From assembly GCF_000283555.1 (NCBI RefSeq), contig NC_016012.1:1-32000 (forward strand): a DNA stretch of 32,000 nt. Reading direction: 5' to 3'. This DNA is from Candidatus Arthromitus sp. SFB-rat-Yit. Lineage in GTDB: Bacteria; Bacillota; Clostridia; Clostridiales; Clostridiaceae. Below, in pieces: positions 22,830 to 32,000 of this stretch (its first letter is position 1; each line of letters starts with the position of its first letter). Below the pieces are notes generated by a model that ran no database searches, was not told where the DNA came from, and was given only the letters and a program-made list of their open reading frames with translations. A program made the translations under genes and the position numbers.

Positions 22830-22906
22830 GCACAGGTAGCTCAGTTGGATAGAGTAGCTGGCTACGAACCAGTTGGTCGGGGGTTCGAATCCTCTCCTGT
22901 GTGCCA
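22830..22906 (+). tRNA. tRNA-Arg (anticodon ACG)
   Basis: 77 nt. Acceptor GCACAGG/CCTGTGT (G1:U72 wobble), anticodon arm GCTGG-CTACGAA-CCAGT, T-loop TTCGAAT, encoded CCA. Confidence 0.9.
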
Positions 22907-22955: not shown

Positions 22956-23051
22956 ATATATAAATGTTAAGGAGATATTTAAATTGTCAAAATGATAGCT
23001 CAGAAAATATAGTATTAAAATTATATTTTAAAATTTTAGGAGGATAAAATT

Positions 23052-23477
23052 ATGGTAAAACCTTTTATAACGTTTAAAGGAAATGCAAATGAGGCTATTA
23101 ACTTCTATGAGGAGGTATTTAATGGCACAGATAAGAAGGTAATGTATTACGGAGATATGCCAAGTGATCCTGAGTTTAAAATAGATGAGAATAAAAAGAA
23201 TTGGGTGCTTCATGGAACGCTTAATATTTGTGGATCAGAGATTATGTTTTCTGATACAGATGAGAGTTTACATAATGAAAATACTTTTAACCCTTCTTGT
23301 ATGATTTCTATTGCTGTTGATTTTAAAAGTGAAGATGAGATACGTTCAGCTTATGAAAAGCTTAAAGAGGGTGGATATGTTATGATGGAGCTTTCTCCTC
23401 AATTTTTTGCAGGACTCTATGCTTGGGTTTCTGACAAATTTGGGGTAACTTGGCAAATGACATATAGTACTCATTAA
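23052..23477 (+). CDS. VOC-family / PhnB-like (glyoxalase fold) protein
   Basis: 141 aa, RBS AGGAGG. PFITFKGNANEAINFYEEVF ... FGVTWQ is characteristic of the PhnB-like / 3-demethylubiquinone methyltransferase-domain family. G+C is intermediate (~1/3 by hand count). Confidence 0.78.
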   Translation: MVKPFITFKGNANEAINFYEEVFNGTDKKVMYYGDMPSDPEFKIDENKKNWVLHGTLNICGSEIMFSDTDESLHNENTFNPSCMISIAVDFKSEDEIRSAYEKLKEGGYVMMELSPQFFAGLYAWVSDKFGVTWQMTYSTH

Positions 23478-23618
23478 TGATATTTGTAGGAAGATATGTC
23501 TAAAAAGAGGGGTAAAAATAATACAGCTTATACAGTCGAAAATGGCGAGATCGATGATTGTCTTATGTTCACTCTCGACATAGCACTGCGCAATCTTGCT
23601 ATCGTTGACTTTCGTTTT

Positions 23619-24037
23619 TTACGTCAGATAATCTATGGTGTAGGTTTTTTGCAGAGGGTCATCGACTTTGTACTTATCGTTTGGAATTATCTGCTTGATC
23701 GTCGTGGTGTTACACTTTGGCTTGTTTACCGGTGACGCCAATCGGATGATGGACACTGGAATGTCAAGTACATGGTTATTTGCCGATAGAAAACAGAAAA
23801 TATCGTATTATTTTGCCGTTAATGAAATCTCCTGACCATTGCTTATAATTTTTCTGCGGCAAGGTTTATTTCAAGTCCGGGAAATGATATTATCGGCTCA
23901 TCTCGAAGTTCTAACTTTTCCAAATCAGGGTGGCGTGACCAAAAAAGATAAAATATCTTCAAATGCCGAACTGTCACGCTCTGTTAACTTTAATATAATG
24001 ATTCGTCTGATAGTACCACCTCCTTGATGATTACCAT
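23619..24037 (-). pseudogene. Remnant of an OmpR/PhoB-type response regulator (winged-helix part recognisable, receiver mostly deleted)
   Basis: Stitching three minus-strand frames gives MVIIKEVVLSDESL.. / ..IIILKLTERDSS..HPDLEKLELRDEPIISFPGLEINLAAEK / IISNGQEISLTAK[TAA]YDIFCFLSANNHVL...TYTIDYLT[TAA]. The LTxKE(F/Y)..L..L pattern is typical of Trans_reg_C domains. At ~139 codons it is too short for a full regulator. Confidence 0.3.
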
Positions 24038-24085
24038 TTTTAGAATCTAATCCTATGCTTATTCCTCGATATTGATTTGCTGATC

Positions 24086-24984
24086 CTAATAGAGTTTGTT
24101 ACTCATAATTTCAGGACTTTCCCCAATAAAGGCTTTTGCTGCTTCTTCATCGCCCTGAAGCTGCCACATAAACCATGCGGTCAAGCCACCCGCTTATACA
24201 TCATATCACCATGTGTCATGCCAACTCTTCTAGCCATAACTTTGGGTGAAGTAATTTTATTGTACATCTTATTAATTTCAGCTATTGGGATAACAATTTT
24301 GGTTTCAAAATCACCGCTGGTTCCGGCAAGCATTAGAATAGGACAATTTGTCTTCGCGGAATCGTAGGGATAGTCTGTTGTATGTTCAGCGGTTTTTTCG
24401 CTTATAGGAGAAAGCAGCATAGCAGTTTTGAATGACTTTCTTCAAACATAGTAATCGCACGCAGAGTTGCAGCAACGCCCTGAGAAAATCCTGTAATGCA
24501 TATATTCTCTACATCAATTTTGTCGTAGAAAATACTGTCCTTGTTTTCATTTTCTCCGAGAATATAGTTCAGCGTTTTGATTGTCGTTTCGCCCTTGTCT
24601 GTCCCTTTGTCCTGCGTTCCTACAACAATAAATCACCAAGAAGCTAATTGGCTCAAATTCAGGATCATACTTTGTTGCTTTGAATCCTGTACCGTTTATC
24701 ACAAGTATAATCGGATATTAGTTATCGGTTGTTTCAAGCTCACTCGGATAATAAATTGTGTATTTTTTGATTGGATCTTCTGCTTTCACAGTTTCCTTCG
24801 AGGTTTCATATGTACCGTTTTGTAGATACTTTTTTTCTATTTCCTTGCCTGTTTCTATTTTCTCATTATAGCATTTATGTATAATCGGGGCATTATCCGC
24901 CCAAAGATATCAAACTACAATGAGCGCAATCAAAACTAATATAATGATAAAGATCACTTTTAGAATTTTGGGTAATGTTTTTAT
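24086..24984 (-). pseudogene. Decayed membrane-anchored alpha/beta hydrolase (dienelactone-hydrolase/chlorophyllase-like)
   Basis: Minus strand reads (ATA)KTLPKILKVIFIIILVLIALIVV[TGA]YLWADN...ETTDN[TAA]YPIILVINGTGFKATKYDPEFE / QLASW[TGA]FIVVGTQDKG...ICITGFSQGVAATLRAI (GxSxG) / MLLSPIS...CPILMLAGTSGD...GMTHGDMMY / LTAWFMWQLQGDEEAAKAFIGESPEIMSNKLY[TAG]. That is three in-frame stops, at least three frame changes and no ATG. Confidence 0.7.
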
Positions 24985-25006
24985 TGTTTACTTTTTTCTG
25001 AATTTG

Positions 25007-26140
25007 TCAGTATTGTTTATTAACCAAATCAAGACCGTAGTCCACCAGTTTGCCGTTTATTGCGTCGTTAAGCCATCCGGCGATAGACTGTTTTTGTTCC
25101 TCAAACGGCAGCCATACGGCAGGAGTTGCGATAATGGTATGTGCTGTCATATTTCTCGGATCGTCATACCATGCAACGCCATCCCAAATGAACAGGCTTA
25201 CACCGATTTCCTTAAATTGTGGAATGATGTCTTTTAGTATATGCTGATAAATGTCCGCTTCTTTTTCCGATACATCCATTACACCCGTGTCGAGATAATT
25301 CTGCACCTTTGCCAAATCGCCATCTCTAGTGGAGCTATCGAATAGAATATGGATACCATCACCGTATTTTTCATGCAGGGCAGTAAGACAGTCCAGCGTG
25401 AGATTATTGCCTGTCAGCTTATCCGAGATTTCTTTCGGAGTTTTCCAAACATCGGTTGCGACAGTGTGCCAATCGTCATATAGCAAGAGGGATGCATCTA
25501 CTAAAACATTTTTGCTTACCGAATTCGGAAAGTAGTTTGTAAAAATATCGTCAGAAAGAAGCGCCGCTCCAAATCCTCCGGCACTATATCCAGTAACAAC
25601 GACTGTATCGGGATTATCAATACCAGCAAGCTCCGTTATTTTCTTCATTGATTCTGTATAATTTACATAACCGTTGTGGTAAAGAATCTTCTCTTTGCCG
25701 TTTTTATCAGTATAATGAAATTCGCCTGTTCCAGCATGGAAATCCCCCGTTGCATAGGGAAATAGGATAATGCTCCAGTTTTCAAACGGACTGTTCTCCA
25801 CATCAGAAGCAAGACCGCCCATGTTCATTGTGACATTTGCCAGTATATCCGGCCATACCATTTTTGTGTTGTAATTGTCATTTTTAGCTGTTTCCTCGTT
25901 AATGCTGACACCGCCTCCGGCAAAATAGATCATTACTTTATTCTCGCTACCTTTTTTGAAAAGGGCGTGATAGCCGTTTCCTTCGGAATCCTTCATCTCA
26001 TTGGTTTCAACACGATACCATTTTCCCTCGGCAGGGTTTTTCTTCAAATTCGGGTATCGCAGTACGAGGAAATACACGAGCAATACGATGGCAATAAGAA
26101 CCAATAAAATGATTCTAATTATTTTTAATGCTTTTTTCAT
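25007..26140 (-). CDS. Membrane-anchored alpha/beta hydrolase, pectin-acetylesterase-family-like
   Basis: Intact 377-aa ORF. N-terminal TM IIRIILLVLIAIVLLVYFLVL, FAGGG oxyanion-type motif, nucleophile elbow VTGYSAGGFGA. The family assignment is from remembered motif patterns. Confidence 0.7.
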   Translation of the reverse strand: MKKALKIIRIILLVLIAIVLLVYFLVLRYPNLKKNPAEGKWYRVETNEMKDSEGNGYHALFKKGSENKVMIYFAGGGVSINEETAKNDNYNTKMVWPDILANVTMNMGGLASDVENSPFENWSIILFPYATGDFHAGTGEFHYTDKNGKEKILYHNGYVNYTESMKKITELAGIDNPDTVVVTGYSAGGFGAALLSDDIFTNYFPNSVSKNVLVDASLLLYDDWHTVATDVWKTPKEISDKLTGNNLTLDCLTALHEKYGDGIHILFDSSTRDGDLAKVQNYLDTGVMDVSEKEADIYQHILKDIIPQFKEIGVSLFIWDGVAWYDDPRNMTAHTIIATPAVWLPFEEQKQSIAGWLNDAINGKLVDYGLDLVNKQY

Positions 26141-26151
26141 AACTTTTTCTC

Positions 26152-27138
26152 CTATTTTACAGGCATATACTTGTCGAGGTATTCTTCAACTGTCTTCATA
26201 TATTCTTTCATAACGTCATTGTCATTTTGAACACCGTGTCTCGAATGAGTTGCTTCAAAGAGCTTGTAATCAACACCGTTATCTTTAAGTGCTTTCACCA
26301 AATGACGCACGCCTTTCCACGGCTGCACCCTGTCATGCGTACCGTAGAGCAGGAGACTTGGACAGGAATTTTCATTAACAAAACGGAAAGCAGAAATTGA
26401 TTTTATCAGTTCCTGATAAGAACCGTCTTTTATCATGTCGGGAGTGAGTTCCACTCCACCCATGACGCTGAATAAACCCGATGCTGCTCTTCTTGAATCG
26501 TCCATATCCTGATCAAGTCCGTATATTCCCCAATCCTCTGCATAGAAGCTGGATGGACCAACCATTTCAAACATCAGCTTGACGGGAACGGGAGACTGTG
26601 TAGCGTCTCTGTATGCGTAAAGCATAGCAAGACAGCCTCCGGAAGAACCACTGGATATTGTCATTTCCGTAATGTTATAGCCAAGCTTCTTTGCTTCTTC
26701 AATGACAACAGGCATAGCTGCTTTGATTTCACTCGACTGTGTAAGAATGCTTTTATTGTTTTCGTCGGTACGGAGCGTGTAATTTATGCCGCAGGTTACA
26801 TAGTCCTTACTGCACAGCCACGCAAGCATTTCCTTATCATCGGCTTTATCTCCTGTTGTAAATCAGCCTGCGTGAAGATAGACAACCAAGCCGTAGCTTT
26901 CTTTTGTGTTATCCTTTGGAAGATAAAGGTCAAATTTATTTGCTCCACCGTTGCCATAGGAAATATCGGTTTTCAGTATTCCAAGCTCGTCGCTCCATTG
27001 AACGCTGTAATTTTTTGCCCATGACGGTTTAATCGCAACTTTTGATATCATGCCGCCCACAAAAGCCAAAATAAATACCAAAATTCCGATTCCAATTGGC
27101 ACGGCTCTCACCTTCTTTTCTTTCTTTATTTTGTTCAT
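26152..27138 (-). pseudogene. Membrane-anchored esterase/lipase (fold-3 / BD-FAE-like) interrupted by one in-frame TGA
   Basis: ORFs 26863..27138 and 26152..26829 are one frame: ...GLVVYLHAG[TGA 26863-26865]FTTGDKADDKEMLAW... The nucleophile is in TISSGSSGGCLA and the C-terminal His in EATHSRHG. It is 328 codons if the TGA is read as sense. Confidence 0.78.
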
Positions 27139-27269
27139 AAGAAATTACCTCCGAACATCGTTCCGCCGAGTAAAAGGTTCATAACGACTCTGACTGCAAG
27201 TCTGTCGAGAACAAACGCTACAACGGCAATAAATATTAGAATAATCCATTTTTTCTGGGTTAGTTTCAT
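27135..27269 (-). CDS. Small hydrophobic peptide (44 aa), translationally coupled to the esterase
   Basis: MKLTQKKWIILIFIAVVAFVLDRLAVRVVMNLLLGGTMFGGNFL. RBS GAAAGGA 9 nt upstream. Its TGA overlaps the esterase ATG (ATGA at 27135-27138). Below the ORF-track size cutoff. Confidence 0.4.
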   Translation of the reverse strand: MKLTQKKWIILIFIAVVAFVLDRLAVRVVMNLLLGGTMFGGNFL

Positions 27270-27321
27270 TTCTGTAAATTCCTTTCTGCCATTACATATT
27301 GATTTTTTGTTTACAGCGTGC

Positions 27322-27367
27322 TATCATAATGATGATACACTTGTTTTGGTGATGTTATTGTATCATC
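27322..27367. promoter_or_regulatory. Candidate TetR operator: interlocking inverted repeats built on TATCAT/ATGATA
   Basis: TATCAT-aatg-ATGATA (27322-27337), and GATGATACA (27331-27339) paired with TGTATCATC (27359-27367). They lie in the 130-nt divergent region between the small-peptide/hydrolase operon and the TetR gene. Confidence 0.35.
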
Positions 27368-27399
27368 GGATTTTATTAACGTCAATGGGAGGTGATAAA

Positions 27400-27933
27400 A
27401 TGAGACAAACTCCAAAAAATGTATCACCGTTCAGCAATCAAGCGAGAAACGCTTATGTTATAGAGCATATTACGGACTCACTATTGAAGTTATTGCGGGA
27501 CAAGCATATAGGTGATATATCCATTAGCGAACTATGCGACCTTGCCGGTATCGGTAGAGCTTCGTTTTATCGGAATTTTGAAAGCAAAGAGGACATTTTG
27601 CGGGGATATATCAATAAAATATTCAAAGAATGGATGAACGAAGCAGATGGAAAAGAAAACAGACCGTTAAGCGAATTGCTCGGCTTACTGTTTGTACATT
27701 TTGAAAAACATAGAAATTTTTACAGTTTATTAAATGAAAGAAATCTTGTGCACCTTTTGAAAGATGTTATTATCGGATTATGCGGACCGAAACCCGAACA
27801 TTCAAAGGTGGAAGCATACGCAAAGGCATATGTAGCATATACGTTGTACGGATGGATTGAAGTGTGGTTTCAAAGGGGAATGCATGAATCAGCGGAAGAA
27901 ATCATAGAAATGTTTAAGGGTCAGGGATTATAA
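27400..27933 (+). CDS. TetR/AcrR-family transcriptional regulator
   Basis: The ORF track starts at 27307, but RBS GGGAGGTG precedes ATG 27400 (MRQTPKNV...). HTH ISISELCDLAGIGRASFYRNFESKEDIL. 177 aa, intact. Confidence 0.85.
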   Translation: MRQTPKNVSPFSNQARNAYVIEHITDSLLKLLRDKHIGDISISELCDLAGIGRASFYRNFESKEDILRGYINKIFKEWMNEADGKENRPLSELLGLLFVHFEKHRNFYSLLNERNLVHLLKDVIIGLCGPKPEHSKVEAYAKAYVAYTLYGWIEVWFQRGMHESAEEIIEMFKGQGL

Positions 27934-27957
27934 TGTAAATGTACTTTACGAAAACTA

Positions 27958-28233
27958 TTATTGAATACCTTTTGATTTTTCCTCAAGTGTGTTCAGGTCT
28001 TCAAAAGTAGAGGGTTCAAATCTATATGGGGAGGGTTTGCGCACCTTTCCACTTTCCAGGAACTACAGATTTACAAATTTGGTATTTTTTGTATGAAAGC
28101 TGAATAGTAGCTTACCTGTGCCGTGAGGGAATGGTGCAGTTGCTCGGTCTCCATTGAAACGCGGGCAGAGGCAGCGACCTTTTTTTGCTGGTAGTTGCAG
28201 GATTTATGATTCGATTTTCCTTATTTTTCCCAT
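27958..28233 (-). pseudogene. N-terminal stub of a large serine recombinase
   Basis: MGKIRKIES.. then, in another frame, KKVAASARVSMETEQLHHSLTAQVSYYSAFIQKIPNL[TAA]. This matches the RVAAYARVST...Q..YY...I catalytic-Ser region. About 90 codons remain of a protein that is normally 500 aa or more, and it abuts the TetR 3' end. Confidence 0.55.
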
Positions 28234-28423
28234 AAAATCATATCCTTTTCGCTATAATATATCATTCTAAAATAGACACATAGTAAGTCTTACGGGAATA
28301 ATAATGTTGAGAATTTCGTCTCGTATTTTGCCCGCAGTTTTGTATCAATCTACTCAGTTATGGGTTATTTTTCACAGAGGTTTTTCGCTATCGTGATGGC
28401 GATGGGATACTTCTTTTTTTGCT

Positions 28424-28860
28424 TCAAATTAATGTTTGCTCATTGCTATCACCGTCTTTGAACCTATCTGAAATATAGCAGGTATGGCAGTAGTATTTTC
28501 GGTGGATGTTGCCGTATGCTGAGAACAGCTTTTCGTATTCGATGCAGGTGCATGAGTAGATAGCTTTGCGAGTGATTTTTTCCGGGAACGCGTTCCACCA
28601 CTTGTAGCGACACTCATTGGAGTAGAATTTTTTTTCTTTCCTGACGTACACCTGCGTTATTGCTTTCCCATATTCTAGGCAGAATGAGGGGGAGAGGATA
28701 GGAATATCGGTGTGCTTCCCAATGCTGCTCTCGATATGTTGTTCCGTTTGCAGTAAGACTTGACCGTGTTCTTTGACAGGTCGAGTGTCTGTTTGATCTT
28801 GGTATATCTGAAGTTTTGTGAGCGTAAAGCCGTGATTTCGGGTTTTTGCTAAATGTCCAT
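28424..28860 (-). pseudogene. Sigma-70 region-4-like HTH plus zinc-ribbon protein (element-associated), disrupted
   Basis: MDI[TAG 28849-28851]QKPEITALRSQNFRYTKIKQTLDLSKNTVKSYCKRNNIS..., then a frameshift around 28680-28710 (contains a G5/C5 run). It continues FCLEYGKAITQVYVRKEKKFYSNECRYKWWNAF...TCIEYEKLFSAYGNIHRKYYCHTCYISDRF. Several expected CxxC cysteines read Tyr. Confidence 0.6.
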
Positions 28861-28950
28861 AAGAGTAAACTTCACTTCATGTCTTCTGTCAGAGGGAAAA
28901 GGCGGTTTTCATACCCCTTACGTTGAAAAGTGTACGAAACTGCCGAAAGA

Positions 28951-29330
28951 TTAGTCTTTCATATGGAAATCGTAGATATAGCTGTCCGTTCAGAAATTGA
29001 GTCCCGGTGTTCAGTCGGGAACCTATCTATTTGTTCATACAGAATGTTAAGTGATATCTTTGGATCAGCCTCGATTATAAGCTCGTCATGTATGTGCATG
29101 ACGATGGAGCAGCATCGCAGCGTATTTATGTAATTGAAGAGTATGTTCGCGGGAAATAGCCTGGACGATGTTCTCCATGAACTTGGGAGTGTAGGATTCG
29201 ATTATGTGAGCTTGTCGTCCGAAACGATTATGCAGTCGAAAGTGCTGAACGAAATGGGAACATAGATAGTAAAGTTAAACCTTGTTTTAATGAATACCTG
29301 TGCGTCAGAGTAGGTTTGTTGTTCCTGTGT
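28951..29330 (-). pseudogene. C-terminal remnant of a family-A-like (phage/element type) DNA polymerase
   Basis: ...SIVMHIHDELIIEADPKISLNILYEQIDR (HDE motif at 29082-29090), then in a shifted frame TPGLNF[stop]TDSYIYDFHMKD[TAA 28951-28953]. It resembles the VHDE...PW.PGL.L.A.GY...FY.KD termini of such polymerases (from memory). The upstream limit is uncertain. Confidence 0.35.
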
Positions 29331-29381
29331 CATCTGCTCCAGGACGTAATCTTTGTAGGAGTCTGTTAGTTCCTCGCTCTC

Positions 29382-29708
29382 TCATAAAAACGGTAGTTCT
29401 TTAGCAAAGCCCCTTATGAACACCATTTTGTCAAGATCGCTTCTTATTGATTTCGACTTTTTAATGGCAAGCATGGATTCCGTCGCATCAAGGCAAACCA
29501 CTATACGTATGTACGGTGCAAAACTGCGGGAGATGGCACAGGTGCCTGCCACAACTTCCAGCATGGTCATATCTTTGTCAGAGGAATAGTATGAACGATC
29601 ATTTTAAGATAATTCTCATTTTGTAAAGTTGACGACCTTGATATCAAACCCTTCTGCTTGTGTTTCAAATGATTTGTTTATTATCTCAAGATTCTCAGGT
29701 TTCTTCAT
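29382..29708 (-). pseudogene. N-terminal fragment of a class I SAM-dependent methyltransferase (type 11-like)
   Basis: MKKPENLEIINKSFETQAEGFDIKVVNFTK[TGA 29616-29618]ELS[TAA 29604-29606]NDRS...DMTMLEVVAGTCAISRSFAPYIRIVVCLDATESMLAIKK...MVFIRGFAKELPFL[TGA 29382-29384]. Motif I (LEVxxGTC) and the LPF post-II motif are present. The downstream MTase core is not recognisable. The ATG overlaps the ogt stop (ATGA). Confidence 0.55.
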
Positions 29709-30243
29709 AATGCCGTATCTTTCTTCGGAATAAAGAAATTCGTTATATTGACTTTTTCCATTGTAAGGAGTCGCATTTTCTTATCGATTCCTCCAGCGTA
29801 CCCCGTAAGTCTGCCGTTTGTGCTAACCACTCTATGGTAGGGGATAATCAGTAAGATGGAATTGTGACTAACCGCACTACCAACCGCCTGTGCGGACATA
29901 CGGGAGAGTCCTTTTTGTTTCGCTATTTTCTCTGCAATCTCTCCATAGGTGATTGTTTTGCCGAATGGTATTGTCAGAATGATCTCCCATACTGCTTTCC
30001 TAAATTCTGTAGTTTTCATGCGAAGTGGTGGCGTAAAATCAGTAGTATTTCCGGGAAAATAGATATCCAGCCATTTATTTGTTTCCCTAAAAATGGGCAG
30101 GAGTTTTTCATTGTGATCTTTCCTAAGCGTATTGGCAAAATACTTCTGCTCGTCAAACCATAGCCCGATTAGTGCATTGCCGTCGCTTGCAAGTGTAATA
30201 CTGCCAAGCGGCGAATTATGGTGATGTGTATATTCTAGGTCAT
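29705..30243 (-). pseudogene. ogt: Methylated-DNA--protein-cysteine methyltransferase (Ogt/AdaB type) with 5' frameshift and acceptor Cys replaced by Tyr
   Basis: The frame of ORF 29705..30019 extends upstream without stops as ..EYTHHHNSPLGSITLASDGNALIGLWFDEQKYFANTL...DFTPPLRMKTTEFRKAVWEIIL, a full-length Ogt. Both candidate ATGs (30243, 30258) are out of frame. The active site reads IPYHRV (TAC at 29837-29839) instead of PCHRV. Confidence 0.7.
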
Positions 30244-30263
30244 TCCTTCAGTATTCATTGGAA

Positions 30264-30805
30264 TCAGCGTAAGTCTTGGATATGTCTGTATCCGTTTATA
30301 TACGGATAGTAGAGCATACGGTGATCCAATAGCTTTTGAACAGATTTTTTCGTTTTTCTTTTTGGATCATGTGATGCTCCACGACATTGCGTCATATGGG
30401 AATTGCCTACTCGTCTGTATAGACGAGTAGGCAGCAGTTTTCCTTCCTCATTTAGCCGTGAATCGTTTCGTACAAATAAAGTCCTCAAATACGGCAAGTA
30501 GAGGTTTTAAACTGCGGCCAAGTCAAGATACCTTTTCATACCTTACCTTTGTTGGTTTTATCCCAAGCAGCACAATCATTCCGCTCATTATTCGTGTTCT
30601 TCTTTCCATTTTTCAGTCTTGTATCGTTTGTAAGGTCGGTATCCATCACGCAGCGCATCATCCAAATTGTCGTAAAATTATATGTTCTTATGCAGTGGTT
30701 TCGTATGGAAGCTTGGCAGATACACTATCCCTGTGGTACGAAGGTCTACATAGAATAGCCCGTTACAGTATGTATCTCTTTCCTGTATAGCCTTGATTTT
30801 TTCAT
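30264..30805 (-). pseudogene. adaA: AdaA-type regulator (Ada Zn-binding N-domain plus AraC HTH), heavily disrupted
   Basis: ATG 30805-30803 overlaps the alkA stop. An A6 run puts the Ada frame out of register. That frame reads KIKAIQERDTYCNGLFYVDLRTTGIVYLPSFHTKPLHKNI[TAA]FYDNLDDALRDGYRPYKRYKTEKW, followed by 6 more in-frame TAA/TGA, then LDLAAV.NLYLPYLRTLF...SHMTQCRGAS (AraC-like tail). Confidence 0.7.
30404..30433. repeat. Perfect 12-bp inverted repeat (hairpin) inside the adaA remnant
   Basis: TGCCTACTCGTC-tgtata-GACGAGTAGGCA. All 12 pairs were verified by hand. No T-run follows on the minus strand and only a weak TTTTCC follows on the plus strand. Confidence 0.85.
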
Positions 30806-31470
30806 TTCGTGTTATTTTTTACTCCTTTTGTTAATTTCTTTGTGGGAGCAGGATCGGTAAATCCTGGAACAGTACCGCCTGCAACGGCCCAAAAGTATAG
30901 ACTTGCTACGCTACCATAAGGAGAGAGGCGTTTCCTGTATTTTTCAAACTGCTTCCTGTCAATCTCACGATGCTGATAAACCATTCTCATACCACGCAGA
31001 ATCGCTAAATCACCGAAGCTTAGGATATTTGGTCTTTGCAGACAGAATATTAGAATCATCTCCGCTGTCCATACTCCTATGCCTTTTAAATTCACAAGTG
31101 CATCTATTGCTTCTGTATCAGACATCTTTTTTACGGCAGCTAGGTCAAATTTGCCTATAGTAACTTTTTCGGAAAAGTCCTTGATATACTCCGCCTTGCG
31201 GAAAGTCATTCCCAGAGATTGTAGTTCTGCTATATTTGCACTGTTGATTGTTTCCGGCGTTACTTTGCCAAGATAATCATTCATTCGCTGCCATATAGTC
31301 CGATGTGCCTTTGTGGAAATCTGCTGCCCTATAATGTGATGTACGACAGAGGAGAACAGATCGGAATCTACCTCCCGGTCAATATGCCCCACATGATCGA
31401 TGACCCATGCGAGTTTCTTATCCTTAGATTTAAGATATTCTACAGCTTCATCGCCATACTCAAAATACAT
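30802..31470 (-). CDS. alkA: DNA-3-methyladenine glycosylase II (AlkA-like, HhH-GPD superfamily)
   Basis: Intact. Likely start at M13 of the track ORF (MYFEYGDEAVEYL; the ORF track starts at 31506). HhH LVNLKGIGVWTAEMILIF and catalytic Asp in SFGDLAILRG. Confidence 0.8.
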   Translation of the reverse strand: MYFEYGDEAVEYLKSKDKKLAWVIDHVGHIDREVDSDLFSSVVHHIIGQQISTKAHRTIWQRMNDYLGKVTPETINSANIAELQSLGMTFRKAEYIKDFSEKVTIGKFDLAAVKKMSDTEAIDALVNLKGIGVWTAEMILIFCLQRPNILSFGDLAILRGMRMVYQHREIDRKQFEKYRKRLSPYGSVASLYFWAVAGGTVPGFTDPAPTKKLTKGVKNNTK

Positions 31471-31567
31471 CTTTTCACCGCTCACCGCCTTTATAAATCG
31501 CCTCATCTATACTATAATTATATCGCGAAACACTGGTATTTTCTATTAGAATGCTGTAGAATTTTAA

Positions 31568-32000
31568 CAATATATTTCAAACACTAACATTCAGGATGCG
31601 ATCACCTTGGAAAAACGGAATGTATATATCAATTTGGTTAATTTGAACCTGCATACCTACTTCTCGTACCTTGTTCTCAATGTTGAAAATGACACTTCTT
31701 ATCTGTTGAATCCGGGTTTACGTGTCATGCATTGGTATGAAGACCTATATTTTATCTATGTGATAGAATGAACGATATGTGTGAAGACGTTGGGAACAGA
31801 GGAAATTGGCTCTGTGGTAGATGGGATATACATCAACAAGAATGTCGTGCATCTGGTTGAAAATATCAGTGCTTGCAAGTATAAGAGTTTTCTTTTCCCG
31901 GAATACTTTGTTTATTATTACCTGATAGCACCGACAAGTTGCACTTACATACGTCATAACGTGAAACAGTGGAATCTCACTGATGATGCTATACGGCTCT
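31568..32000 (+). pseudogene. AraC/XylS-family regulator, N-terminal cupin part (partial at window end, no in-frame ATG, one in-frame TGA)
   Basis: A plus-strand frame is open from 31568 to the window end except for TGA 31769-31771: ...LNPGLRVMHWYEDLYFIYVIE[TGA]TICVKTLGTEEIGSVVDGIYINKNVVHLVENISACKYKSFLFPEYF. This resembles the HWH.E.E.IYV.EG...G..I.IN.N..H cupin pattern. It is divergent from alkA. Confidence 0.4.

Follow-up and report, generated by a model that had tools for sequence, protein, structure and literature searches.

The window analysed here, a stretch of 32,000 nucleotides, covers the initial 32 kb of the chromosome (1,515,556 bp) of the segmented filamentous bacterium (SFB) Candidatus Arthromitus sp. 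SFB-rat-Yit. Five of its protein sequences (DnaN, GyrA, a 377-aa hydrolase, a 225-aa esterase fragment and AlkA) are identical to entries from this strain. The window starts at dnaA and continues with dnaN-recF-gyrB-gyrA-serS-addB-addA, and is therefore the origin-proximal part of the genome. In the first 23 kb, the G + C content (GC) is 21–30% and the GC skew is strongly positive; beyond ≈23.5 kb, GC rises to 35–42%. The GC-richer part is a foreign insert, ≈23 kb from oriC, whose genes are decaying. An earlier note on this DNA had drawn attention to four stop codons that lie in frame at conserved glycine or glutamate positions, and had weighed a G>T-biased mutagenic process and UGA = Gly decoding as explanations. 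The span that it covered, 24633–31771, lies wholly within the insert.

The insert and its host context

The insert was delimited by composition (GC of 37–45%, vs. 21–30% in the host), by a break in synteny with mouse SFB (AP012209, contig L115) and by comparison of two rat-SFB strains. The window is colinear with mouse SFB up to 22957 and again over 23034–23527, a block made up of a glyoxalase-family gene and the first 26 nt of hsdM. The glyoxalase gene is conserved beside hsdM in mouse SFB and is thus not part of the insert. Colinearity restarts at 32295, within hsdR, which in rat SFB is reduced to a 3' fragment (32295–33452). At the same locus (L115 12566–17415), mouse SFB has 4.85 kb comprising hsdM, hsdS and the 5' 1.9 kb of hsdR. 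Hence, the sister lineage lacks the compositionally distinct segment and has hsdMSR there, and the insert is a replacement of most of the type I restriction-modification operon. This replacement was missed in the earlier note, and in the literature examined, SFB genome papers included, neither an insert nor pseudogenes or horizontal transfer are mentioned for this site; in most descriptions, the SFB genome is a reduced one with high synteny. A PadR and a DUF1048 gene, located between the tRNA-Arg and glyoxalase genes in mouse SFB (L115 11024–12078), are also missing from rat SFB (window 22958–23033).

The same arrangement was found in a second rat-SFB strain (SRR19621095, contig L004), where a single 33-kb contig, 99.4% identical to the window, runs from host through insert to host. 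In the Logan assembly of the DRR001117 reads, one contig extends from addB to 23918, and another is 100% identical over 23942–32000, taking in the three highlighted TGA codons and reaching 4.1 kb further. The assembly break at 23918–23942 lies inside the insert, ≈400 bp from the compositional junction, and could be caused by low coverage or a variant. All four highlighted stop codons are also present in the second strain, as is every other stop that we checked. These lesions are therefore older than the split between the two strains.

Table 1. Features of the insert and of the adjoining host DNA (window coordinates; pseudogenes are predicted from their lesions; PAE, pectin-acetylesterase-family hydrolase; ORF, open reading frame; SAM, S-adenosylmethionine).
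Feature	Position	Strand	Basis or remarks
tRNA-Arg(ACG), host	22830–22906	+	ARAGORN
Glyoxalase-family gene, host	23052–23477	+	Pfam; DNA of 23034–23527 is 87% identical to that of mouse SFB
Foreign insert	23528–32294 (8.77 kb; ends just past the window)		Composition; synteny break vs. AP012209; two rat-SFB strains
Winged-helix (Trans_reg_C) small stand-alone regulator, pseudogene	23540–24030	−	21 homologues, E down to 2e-16, 9 aligned; ArlR alignment
Alpha/beta-hydrolase (PETase/chlorophyllase-like), pseudogene	24062–24990	−	DNA alignment to L009 (85.8%) and L027; tblastn; Pfam
PAE, intact 377-aa ORF	25007–26140	−	TGA end at donor-gene terminus; 95.8% DNA identity to Gemmiger-type mobile-element copy
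BD-FAE esterase, pseudogene	26152–27138	−	Single nonsense codon TGA 26863–65 (Gly92, GGA>TGA); no frameshift
orf44, 44-aa hydrophobic membrane ORF, intact	27135–27269	−	Directly upstream of esterase; conserved in donor copies L006 and L027
TetR-family regulator, intact 177-aa ORF	27400–27933	+	Divergent from esterase cassette
DUF2800 (mobile-element PD-(D/E)XK-like) remnant	29205–29393	−	Pfam on stop-masked frames
SAM-dependent methyltransferase, pseudogene, truncated and frameshifted	29358–29708	−	tblastn vs. 259-aa homologue in L082
ogt (O6-alkylguanine-DNA alkyltransferase), pseudogene, stop-free	29705–30238	−	Loss of start codon and active site
ABM-type monooxygenase, pseudogene, several frameshifts	30251–30588	−	Homologue alignment
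Ada N-terminal Zn-finger remnant	30618–30800	−	Pfam; PDB Ada alignments; L056 homologue
alkA-type HhH-GPD DNA glycosylase, intact 234-aa ORF, TGA end	30802–31506	−	ORF and homologues
AraC-family regulator, pseudogene	31613–32294 (beyond the window; insert end)	+	tblastn E = 6e-33 and 2e-35 to L061 and L074 homologues

Close relatives of the insert occur in unrelated taxa and mobile elements, with 83–96% DNA identity, on contigs that carry an integrase, a relaxase or TnpV. Along 1,782 bp free of indels, the TetR–orf44–esterase cassette shares 89.7% DNA identity with contigs of metagenome-assembled genomes of human and mouse gut Lachnospiraceae/Clostridia. The PAE gene is 95.8% identical to a copy that stands beside integrase, relaxase, NikA-like, AAA_25, TetR and esterase genes, and the protein is annotated in Gemmiger formicilis. 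The order esterase–hydrolase–PAE or PAE–hydrolase was found again in L027 and L009, and in donor copies as in SFB, the TGA stop of orf44 overlaps the ATG of the esterase (ATGA). In donor contigs L111–L114 (1–7134) and L005 (8786–10987), the TetR–esterase(–PAE) cassette adjoins integrase, relaxase, NikA-like and AAA_25 genes, or TnpV; the cassette is therefore cargo of integrative mobilizable elements that circulate in gut Clostridia. The insert as a whole is a mosaic, which also includes an alkA–ada–ogt cluster and the AraC gene from other sources. The relatives of alkA are accompanied by the same divergent AraC gene, by an ABM gene, ogt and a methyltransferase. Between 28000 and 29400, the DNA is unassignable debris with pieces typical of conjugative or phage-like elements, including the DUF2800 remnant. 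A Cys-rich ORF in this stretch (KKFYSNECRYKWWN..., 28424–28651) presumably resembles proteins of such elements.

Lesions of the insert and the four highlighted stops

The insert displays several kinds of inactivating lesion, including all three types of stop codon, at least six frameshifts and the loss of a start codon and of active-site residues, together with signs of relaxed selection. The small winged-helix regulator has at least two frameshifts in addition to the in-frame TAA at 23808–23810, and a Trp-to-Leu change (TGG>TTG). The family of this remnant came to light only in a large-scale protein search. Pfam had no match for it or for the N-terminal fragment of the AraC gene, and the PDB matches of the winged-helix remnant were weak (E ≈ 0.3, ArlR). 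The hydrolase gene contains three frameshifts (+1, −4, −4), with the +1 insertion 22 nt upstream of TGA 24633–35, and four in-frame stops: TGA 24910–12 (opposite Leu), TAA 24718–20 (opposite Thr/Lys), TGA 24633–35 (opposite Gly) and TAG 24086–88 (from the Gln codon CAG/CAA). The GxSxG motif of the hydrolase has changed from GFSQGG to GFSQGV.

The esterase has the BD-FAE domain (Pfam, E = 1.8e-19) and the H-[GA]-G-G-[FW] oxyanion-hole motif of a fold-3 esterase, which reads HAG[TGA]F in place of HAGGF, and it lacks an uninterrupted ORF and an intact GxSxG elbow. The nucleophile motif GGSAG has become SGSSG (G163S, A166S), and G300R beside the catalytic-His motif has turned HSGHG into HSRHG; G112D is found only in the window strain of the two strains compared. 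The earlier note had wrongly taken the esterase to differ from an intact gene by one codon and had overlooked this further damage. The 225-aa C-terminal fragment downstream of the stop is RATSFB_0017.

In place of the ATG start codon of ogt, the window has CTA and the second strain ATA; the active-site motif PCHR reads PYHR, so that the catalytic Cys is replaced by Tyr. In the Ada remnant, the four Zn-ligand cysteines are all replaced (by Tyr, Phe, Tyr and Tyr) within recognisable flanks, and there is an in-frame TAA at 30678–80. These cysteine losses may have occurred by chance, given the G>A pressure, or may have been selected for as inactivating changes. Other cysteines of the insert have been kept, for example all four of the esterase, unlike the Ada ligands and the catalytic Cys of ogt. 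The ABM gene has in-frame stops at 30392–94 (TGA from TGG, Trp), 30296–98 (TAA from TAT, Tyr) and 30407–09 (TAG, ambiguous). Apart from TGA 31769–71, the AraC gene has TGA 32276–78 (from TGT, Cys), which lies past the window, along with four poorly alignable stops. The apparent TGA and TAA of the methyltransferase (29616 and 29604) lie downstream of a +1 insertion.

The coordinates and strands of the four highlighted codons (TGA 26863–65, TGA 24633–35 and TAA 23808–10 on the minus strand; TGA 31769–71 on the plus strand) were confirmed, and so were the residues that they were said to face. The esterase stop replaces the second Gly of HAGGF, a motif read by 16 of 16 full-length non-SFB homologues (68–90% identity), and the inferred ancestral codon is GGA. 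Both outgroups of the hydrolase, L009 and L027, read ASWGF, with Gly opposite the TGA. The three homologues of the AraC gene read V-L-[DE]-G, with the Gly encoded by GGT, GGG and GGT. The TAA of the winged-helix gene stands in place of the invariant Glu of TAKEYDI, present in all nine aligned homologues. It also holds that each of the four stops needs a first-position G>T change. (The inclusion of TCG among the codons that yield stops by G>T was mistaken, as TCG becomes a stop through C>A instead.) A stop that faces Gly or Glu must look like a first-position G>T change, because the only single-step routes are GGA>TGA, GAA>TAA and GAG>TAG. All four stops are ordinary knock-out mutations at Gly or Glu positions.

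Origin of the stops

We consider the stops to be the result of ordinary pseudogenisation of recently acquired, decaying foreign DNA under AT-biased mutation, an explanation to which we assign a probability of roughly 0.93. The four highlighted codons are a chosen subset of at least 20 in-frame stops in the pseudogenes of the insert. The list of stops produced by tblastn over-counts, since codon inspection showed that those at 24194–24549, 29604, 29616 and 30523 are out of frame after frameshifts and are not nonsense substitutions. We counted nine stops as traceable to one step. Four of these are G>T (Gly three times, Glu once), one is C>T (CAG>TAG, 24086–88), one is G>A (TGG>TGA, 30392–94), two arose by a third-position change from a pyrimidine to A (Tyr>TAA 30296–98 and Cys>TGA 32276–78), and one is ambiguous (TAA 24718–20, opposite Thr/Lys). 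Thus, the observation that all four are G>T follows from the choice of stops that face Gly or Glu; other stops of the insert go back to codons for Gln, Trp, Tyr and Cys.

The spectrum of substitutions on the SFB branch was determined by polarisation with the donor sequences as outgroups, which yielded 89 changes in the TetR–orf44–esterase cassette and 25 in the PAE gene. On the esterase-sense strand, the cassette had 35 G>A, 18 C>T, 9 A>G, 8 G>T, 5 C>A, 5 T>C and 9 other changes; in PAE there were 8 C>T, 7 G>A, 5 G>T and 5 others. Over the combined 114 changes, 68 (60%) were G:C>A:T transitions, 19 (17%) were G:C>T:A transversions and 17 were A:T>G:C transitions. The excess of sense-strand G>A over C>T (35 vs. 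18) in these minus-strand genes is the same strand asymmetry as that seen between the two rat-SFB strains. Here, 96 differences over 23.0–32.3 kb included 51 of the C/T and 19 of the G/A type on the plus (leading) strand, with the AT-ward state about equally often in either strain (49 vs. 45). Both rat-SFB lineages are therefore still decaying via a leading-strand-biased C>T process. We looked for a hotspot motif of the 5-methylcytosine type around the C/T strain differences and found none, the trinucleotide contexts being those of the background. The spectrum presumably reflects mutation rather than selection.

When the spectrum measured in the esterase cassette was applied to the donor coding sequences, 39% of nonsense codons were expected to arise by G>A (from Trp), 25% by G>T (from Glu and Gly) and 21% by C>T (from Gln and Arg). 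For TGA, the expected origins were 68% Trp and 21% Gly, and 51% of TAA codons were expected to come from Glu. The enrichment for Gly and Glu that the earlier note had proposed to look for was not significant: four G>T changes among nine traceable stops, against the ≈25% expected, have P(≥4/9) = 0.17.

These results bear on the idea that a G>T-specific oxidative-damage process of the 8-oxoguanine (8-oxoG) type, caused for example by loss of MutM, MutY or MutT in SFB, was the main creator of the stops. The four highlighted codons are G>T transversions, as in the signature of MutY/MutM-deficient bacteria, and so are the Trp-to-Leu change in the winged-helix gene and the Gly-to-Val change in the GxSxG motif of the hydrolase; sense-strand G>T also makes up 5 of the 25 derived changes in PAE. 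However, G:C>T:A does not dominate the measured spectrum but amounts to 17% against 60% G:C>A:T, and the leading-strand C>T bias of the latter is what would be expected from cytosine deamination. Other stops arose through C>T, G>A and pyrimidine-to-A changes, the excess of G>T among the traceable stops was not significant, and the four codons had been picked after the fact. Judged by wild-type bacterial mutation spectra in general, a G:C>T:A share of 17% would not be expected to need a repair defect, ours being the only spectrum measured here. The G>T-biased process that the earlier note had put forward is thus an unlikely main source of the stops, while a weaker version, in which the rate of G:C>T:A is mildly raised in SFB, may apply.

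The esterase might instead still be functional, through low-level readthrough of the TGA or through the 225-aa C-terminal ORF alone, with the conserved stop being maintained. The gene has one stop and no frameshifts, the stop is common to the two strains, and the ratio of nonsynonymous to synonymous changes per site (pN/pS) on the stem branch is 0.24, similar to that of TetR (0.18) and orf44 (0.23). (On the stem branch of PAE there were 14 synonymous and 11 nonsynonymous changes, a pN/pS of ≈0.22 by rough estimate with an assumed ratio of nonsynonymous to synonymous sites of ≈3.5.) Such low values on the stem mean that most of the divergence accumulated before inactivation. Common descent accounts for the presence of the stop in both strains, given that these are 99.4% identical. 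Moreover, the stop removes the oxyanion-hole loop along with the N-terminal membrane anchor, and the remaining part has the degraded SGSSG motif and G300R beside the catalytic-His motif. The two strains differ in the esterase by five nonsynonymous changes and one synonymous change, consistent with no constraint since the split. The corresponding numbers for ogt are three and zero (8 vs. 1 for both genes together), again consistent with absence of constraint. We therefore consider a working esterase highly improbable, and both genes are probably non-functional. For PAE (4:3), TetR (6:5) and alkA (3:1) the nonsynonymous-to-synonymous counts between strains are ambiguous; these ORFs are still open and their status is unclear.

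Several observations sit less comfortably with the explanation by ordinary decay. The stem pN/pS of the esterase suggests that this gene diverged mostly while functional and was inactivated only recently, and some readthrough of the one stop is conceivable. The Gly codon of the hydrolase is GGC in both outgroups, so that a single G>T step was not demonstrated; the stop arose either in two steps or from an unsampled GGA ancestor. The G>T stops are numerically somewhat over-represented (4/9), and three of the five traceable TGA codons face Gly, where 21% would be expected (P = 0.07, post hoc). Finally, divergence between the strains is very uneven along the insert (1–37 differences per kb), which uniform neutral decay does not explain. 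From 16155 to 36140 of the window and its extension, compared with L004, there are ≈1 difference per kb in host genes, 1–3 in the hydrolase and winged-helix pseudogenes, 6 in PAE and the esterase, 21 in TetR, 37 in ABM/Ada and 66 in the hsdR fragment, where L004 also has deletions of 268 and 117 bp. Local hypermutation or recombination, and not a uniform neutral process, could be behind this unevenness. Re-import of donor alleles by one strain was considered for the dense TetR region and rejected, as the derived states there are divided almost evenly (10 vs. 9).

UGA = Gly decoding (translation table 25), be it by the donor or by SFB, would leave the genes intact; it has next to no probability and, within the limits of the window, is excluded. 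Three in-frame TGA codons are aligned precisely with conserved glycines, as would be seen in the Gracilibacteria/Absconditabacteria (SR1) that use table 25. However, the donor relatives have GGA, GGC, GGT or GGG at these positions in intact table-11 ORFs, and further in-frame TGA codons stand opposite Trp, Cys and Leu. Unlike genes of a table 25 organism, 13 host ORFs for conserved proteins of full length (≈8,300 codons, including DnaA, DnaN, RecF, SerS, full-length GyrA, GyrB, AddA and AddB) contain no in-frame TGA, although GGA is used 127 times. TGA serves as the terminator of host cca and, as the earlier note had rightly stated, of alkA, ogt, the 377-aa hydrolase (PAE) and orf44; in PAE, orf44 and ogt it lies at the same termini as in the donor homologues. 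No tRNA with a UCA anticodon is present among the five tRNAs of the window or in the extensions L001 and L004 (36 kb). The argument that in-frame TAA and TAG codons and frameshifts in the same genes speak against recoding was borne out by the homologue alignments, and the preference for mutational over recoded stops was supported. An assembly chimera or sequencing artefact, which the abrupt GC shift and the broken DRR001117 assembly might suggest, is hardly credible, given that one Logan contig joins the host genes through the composition change up to 23918, that the 33-kb contig from another sample covers host, insert and host, and that the stops are the same in both data sets.

Implications and comparison with known systems

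The explanation by ordinary pseudogenisation runs as follows. The rat SFB lineage took up the 8.8-kb segment horizontally from mobile elements of gut Clostridia (of Lachnospiraceae and Gemmiger type), displacing most of the host type I restriction-modification operon. The genes of the insert are decaying because they are not needed in a reduced, 28%-GC genome, and this decay probably tracks the AT-biased, strand-asymmetric mutation pressure of the host. Most of the changes are cytosine-to-thymine on the leading (+) strand, equivalent to G>A in the minus-strand genes, and the G-rich codons for Gly (GGN), Glu (GAR), Cys (TGY) and Trp (TGG) absorb many of the hits.

With respect to recoding or special mutagenesis, the result is negative: the DNA examined supports neither a change in the genetic code nor a special mutagenic process. 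Where a region is of foreign composition and frameshifted, a stop opposite Gly or Glu should not be taken as recoding. As by-products, the analysis delimits a recent horizontal transfer in which a restriction-modification system of SFB was replaced, and it yields a directly measured, strand-asymmetric and AT-biased spectrum for a bacterium that cannot be cultivated for experiments on mutation accumulation. It is tempting to go further and view the insert as a dated, natural mutation-accumulation record of rat SFB, left by uptake of a mobile element where the restriction-modification operon was destroyed and now eroding by leading-strand C>T at uneven rates, but this broader interpretation is tentative and, in our judgement, rather doubtful.

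The insert resembles the integrative mobilizable elements of gut Clostridia with TetR–esterase–pectin acetylesterase cargo in its order of TetR, orf44, BD-FAE esterase, PAE and hydrolase and in the level of DNA identity. It differs from these elements in being a mosaic in which neither an integrase or relaxase nor att repeats were identified, no repeat search having been run. The best comparison is with the decay and amelioration of pseudogenes in reduced, host-associated bacteria, of which the insert is a further example of a well-known kind. As in those, a GC-richer foreign segment is missing from the sister lineage, nonsense codons, frameshifts and a lost start codon accompany a spectrum dominated by GC>AT changes, and intact-looking ORFs persist amid debris. 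Unlike the usual case, the event in SFB is very recent, PAE having kept 95.8% identity to its Gemmiger-type counterpart. Furthermore, the insert took the place of a type I restriction-modification operon, and its decay is strongly strand-asymmetric and proceeds unevenly along its length.

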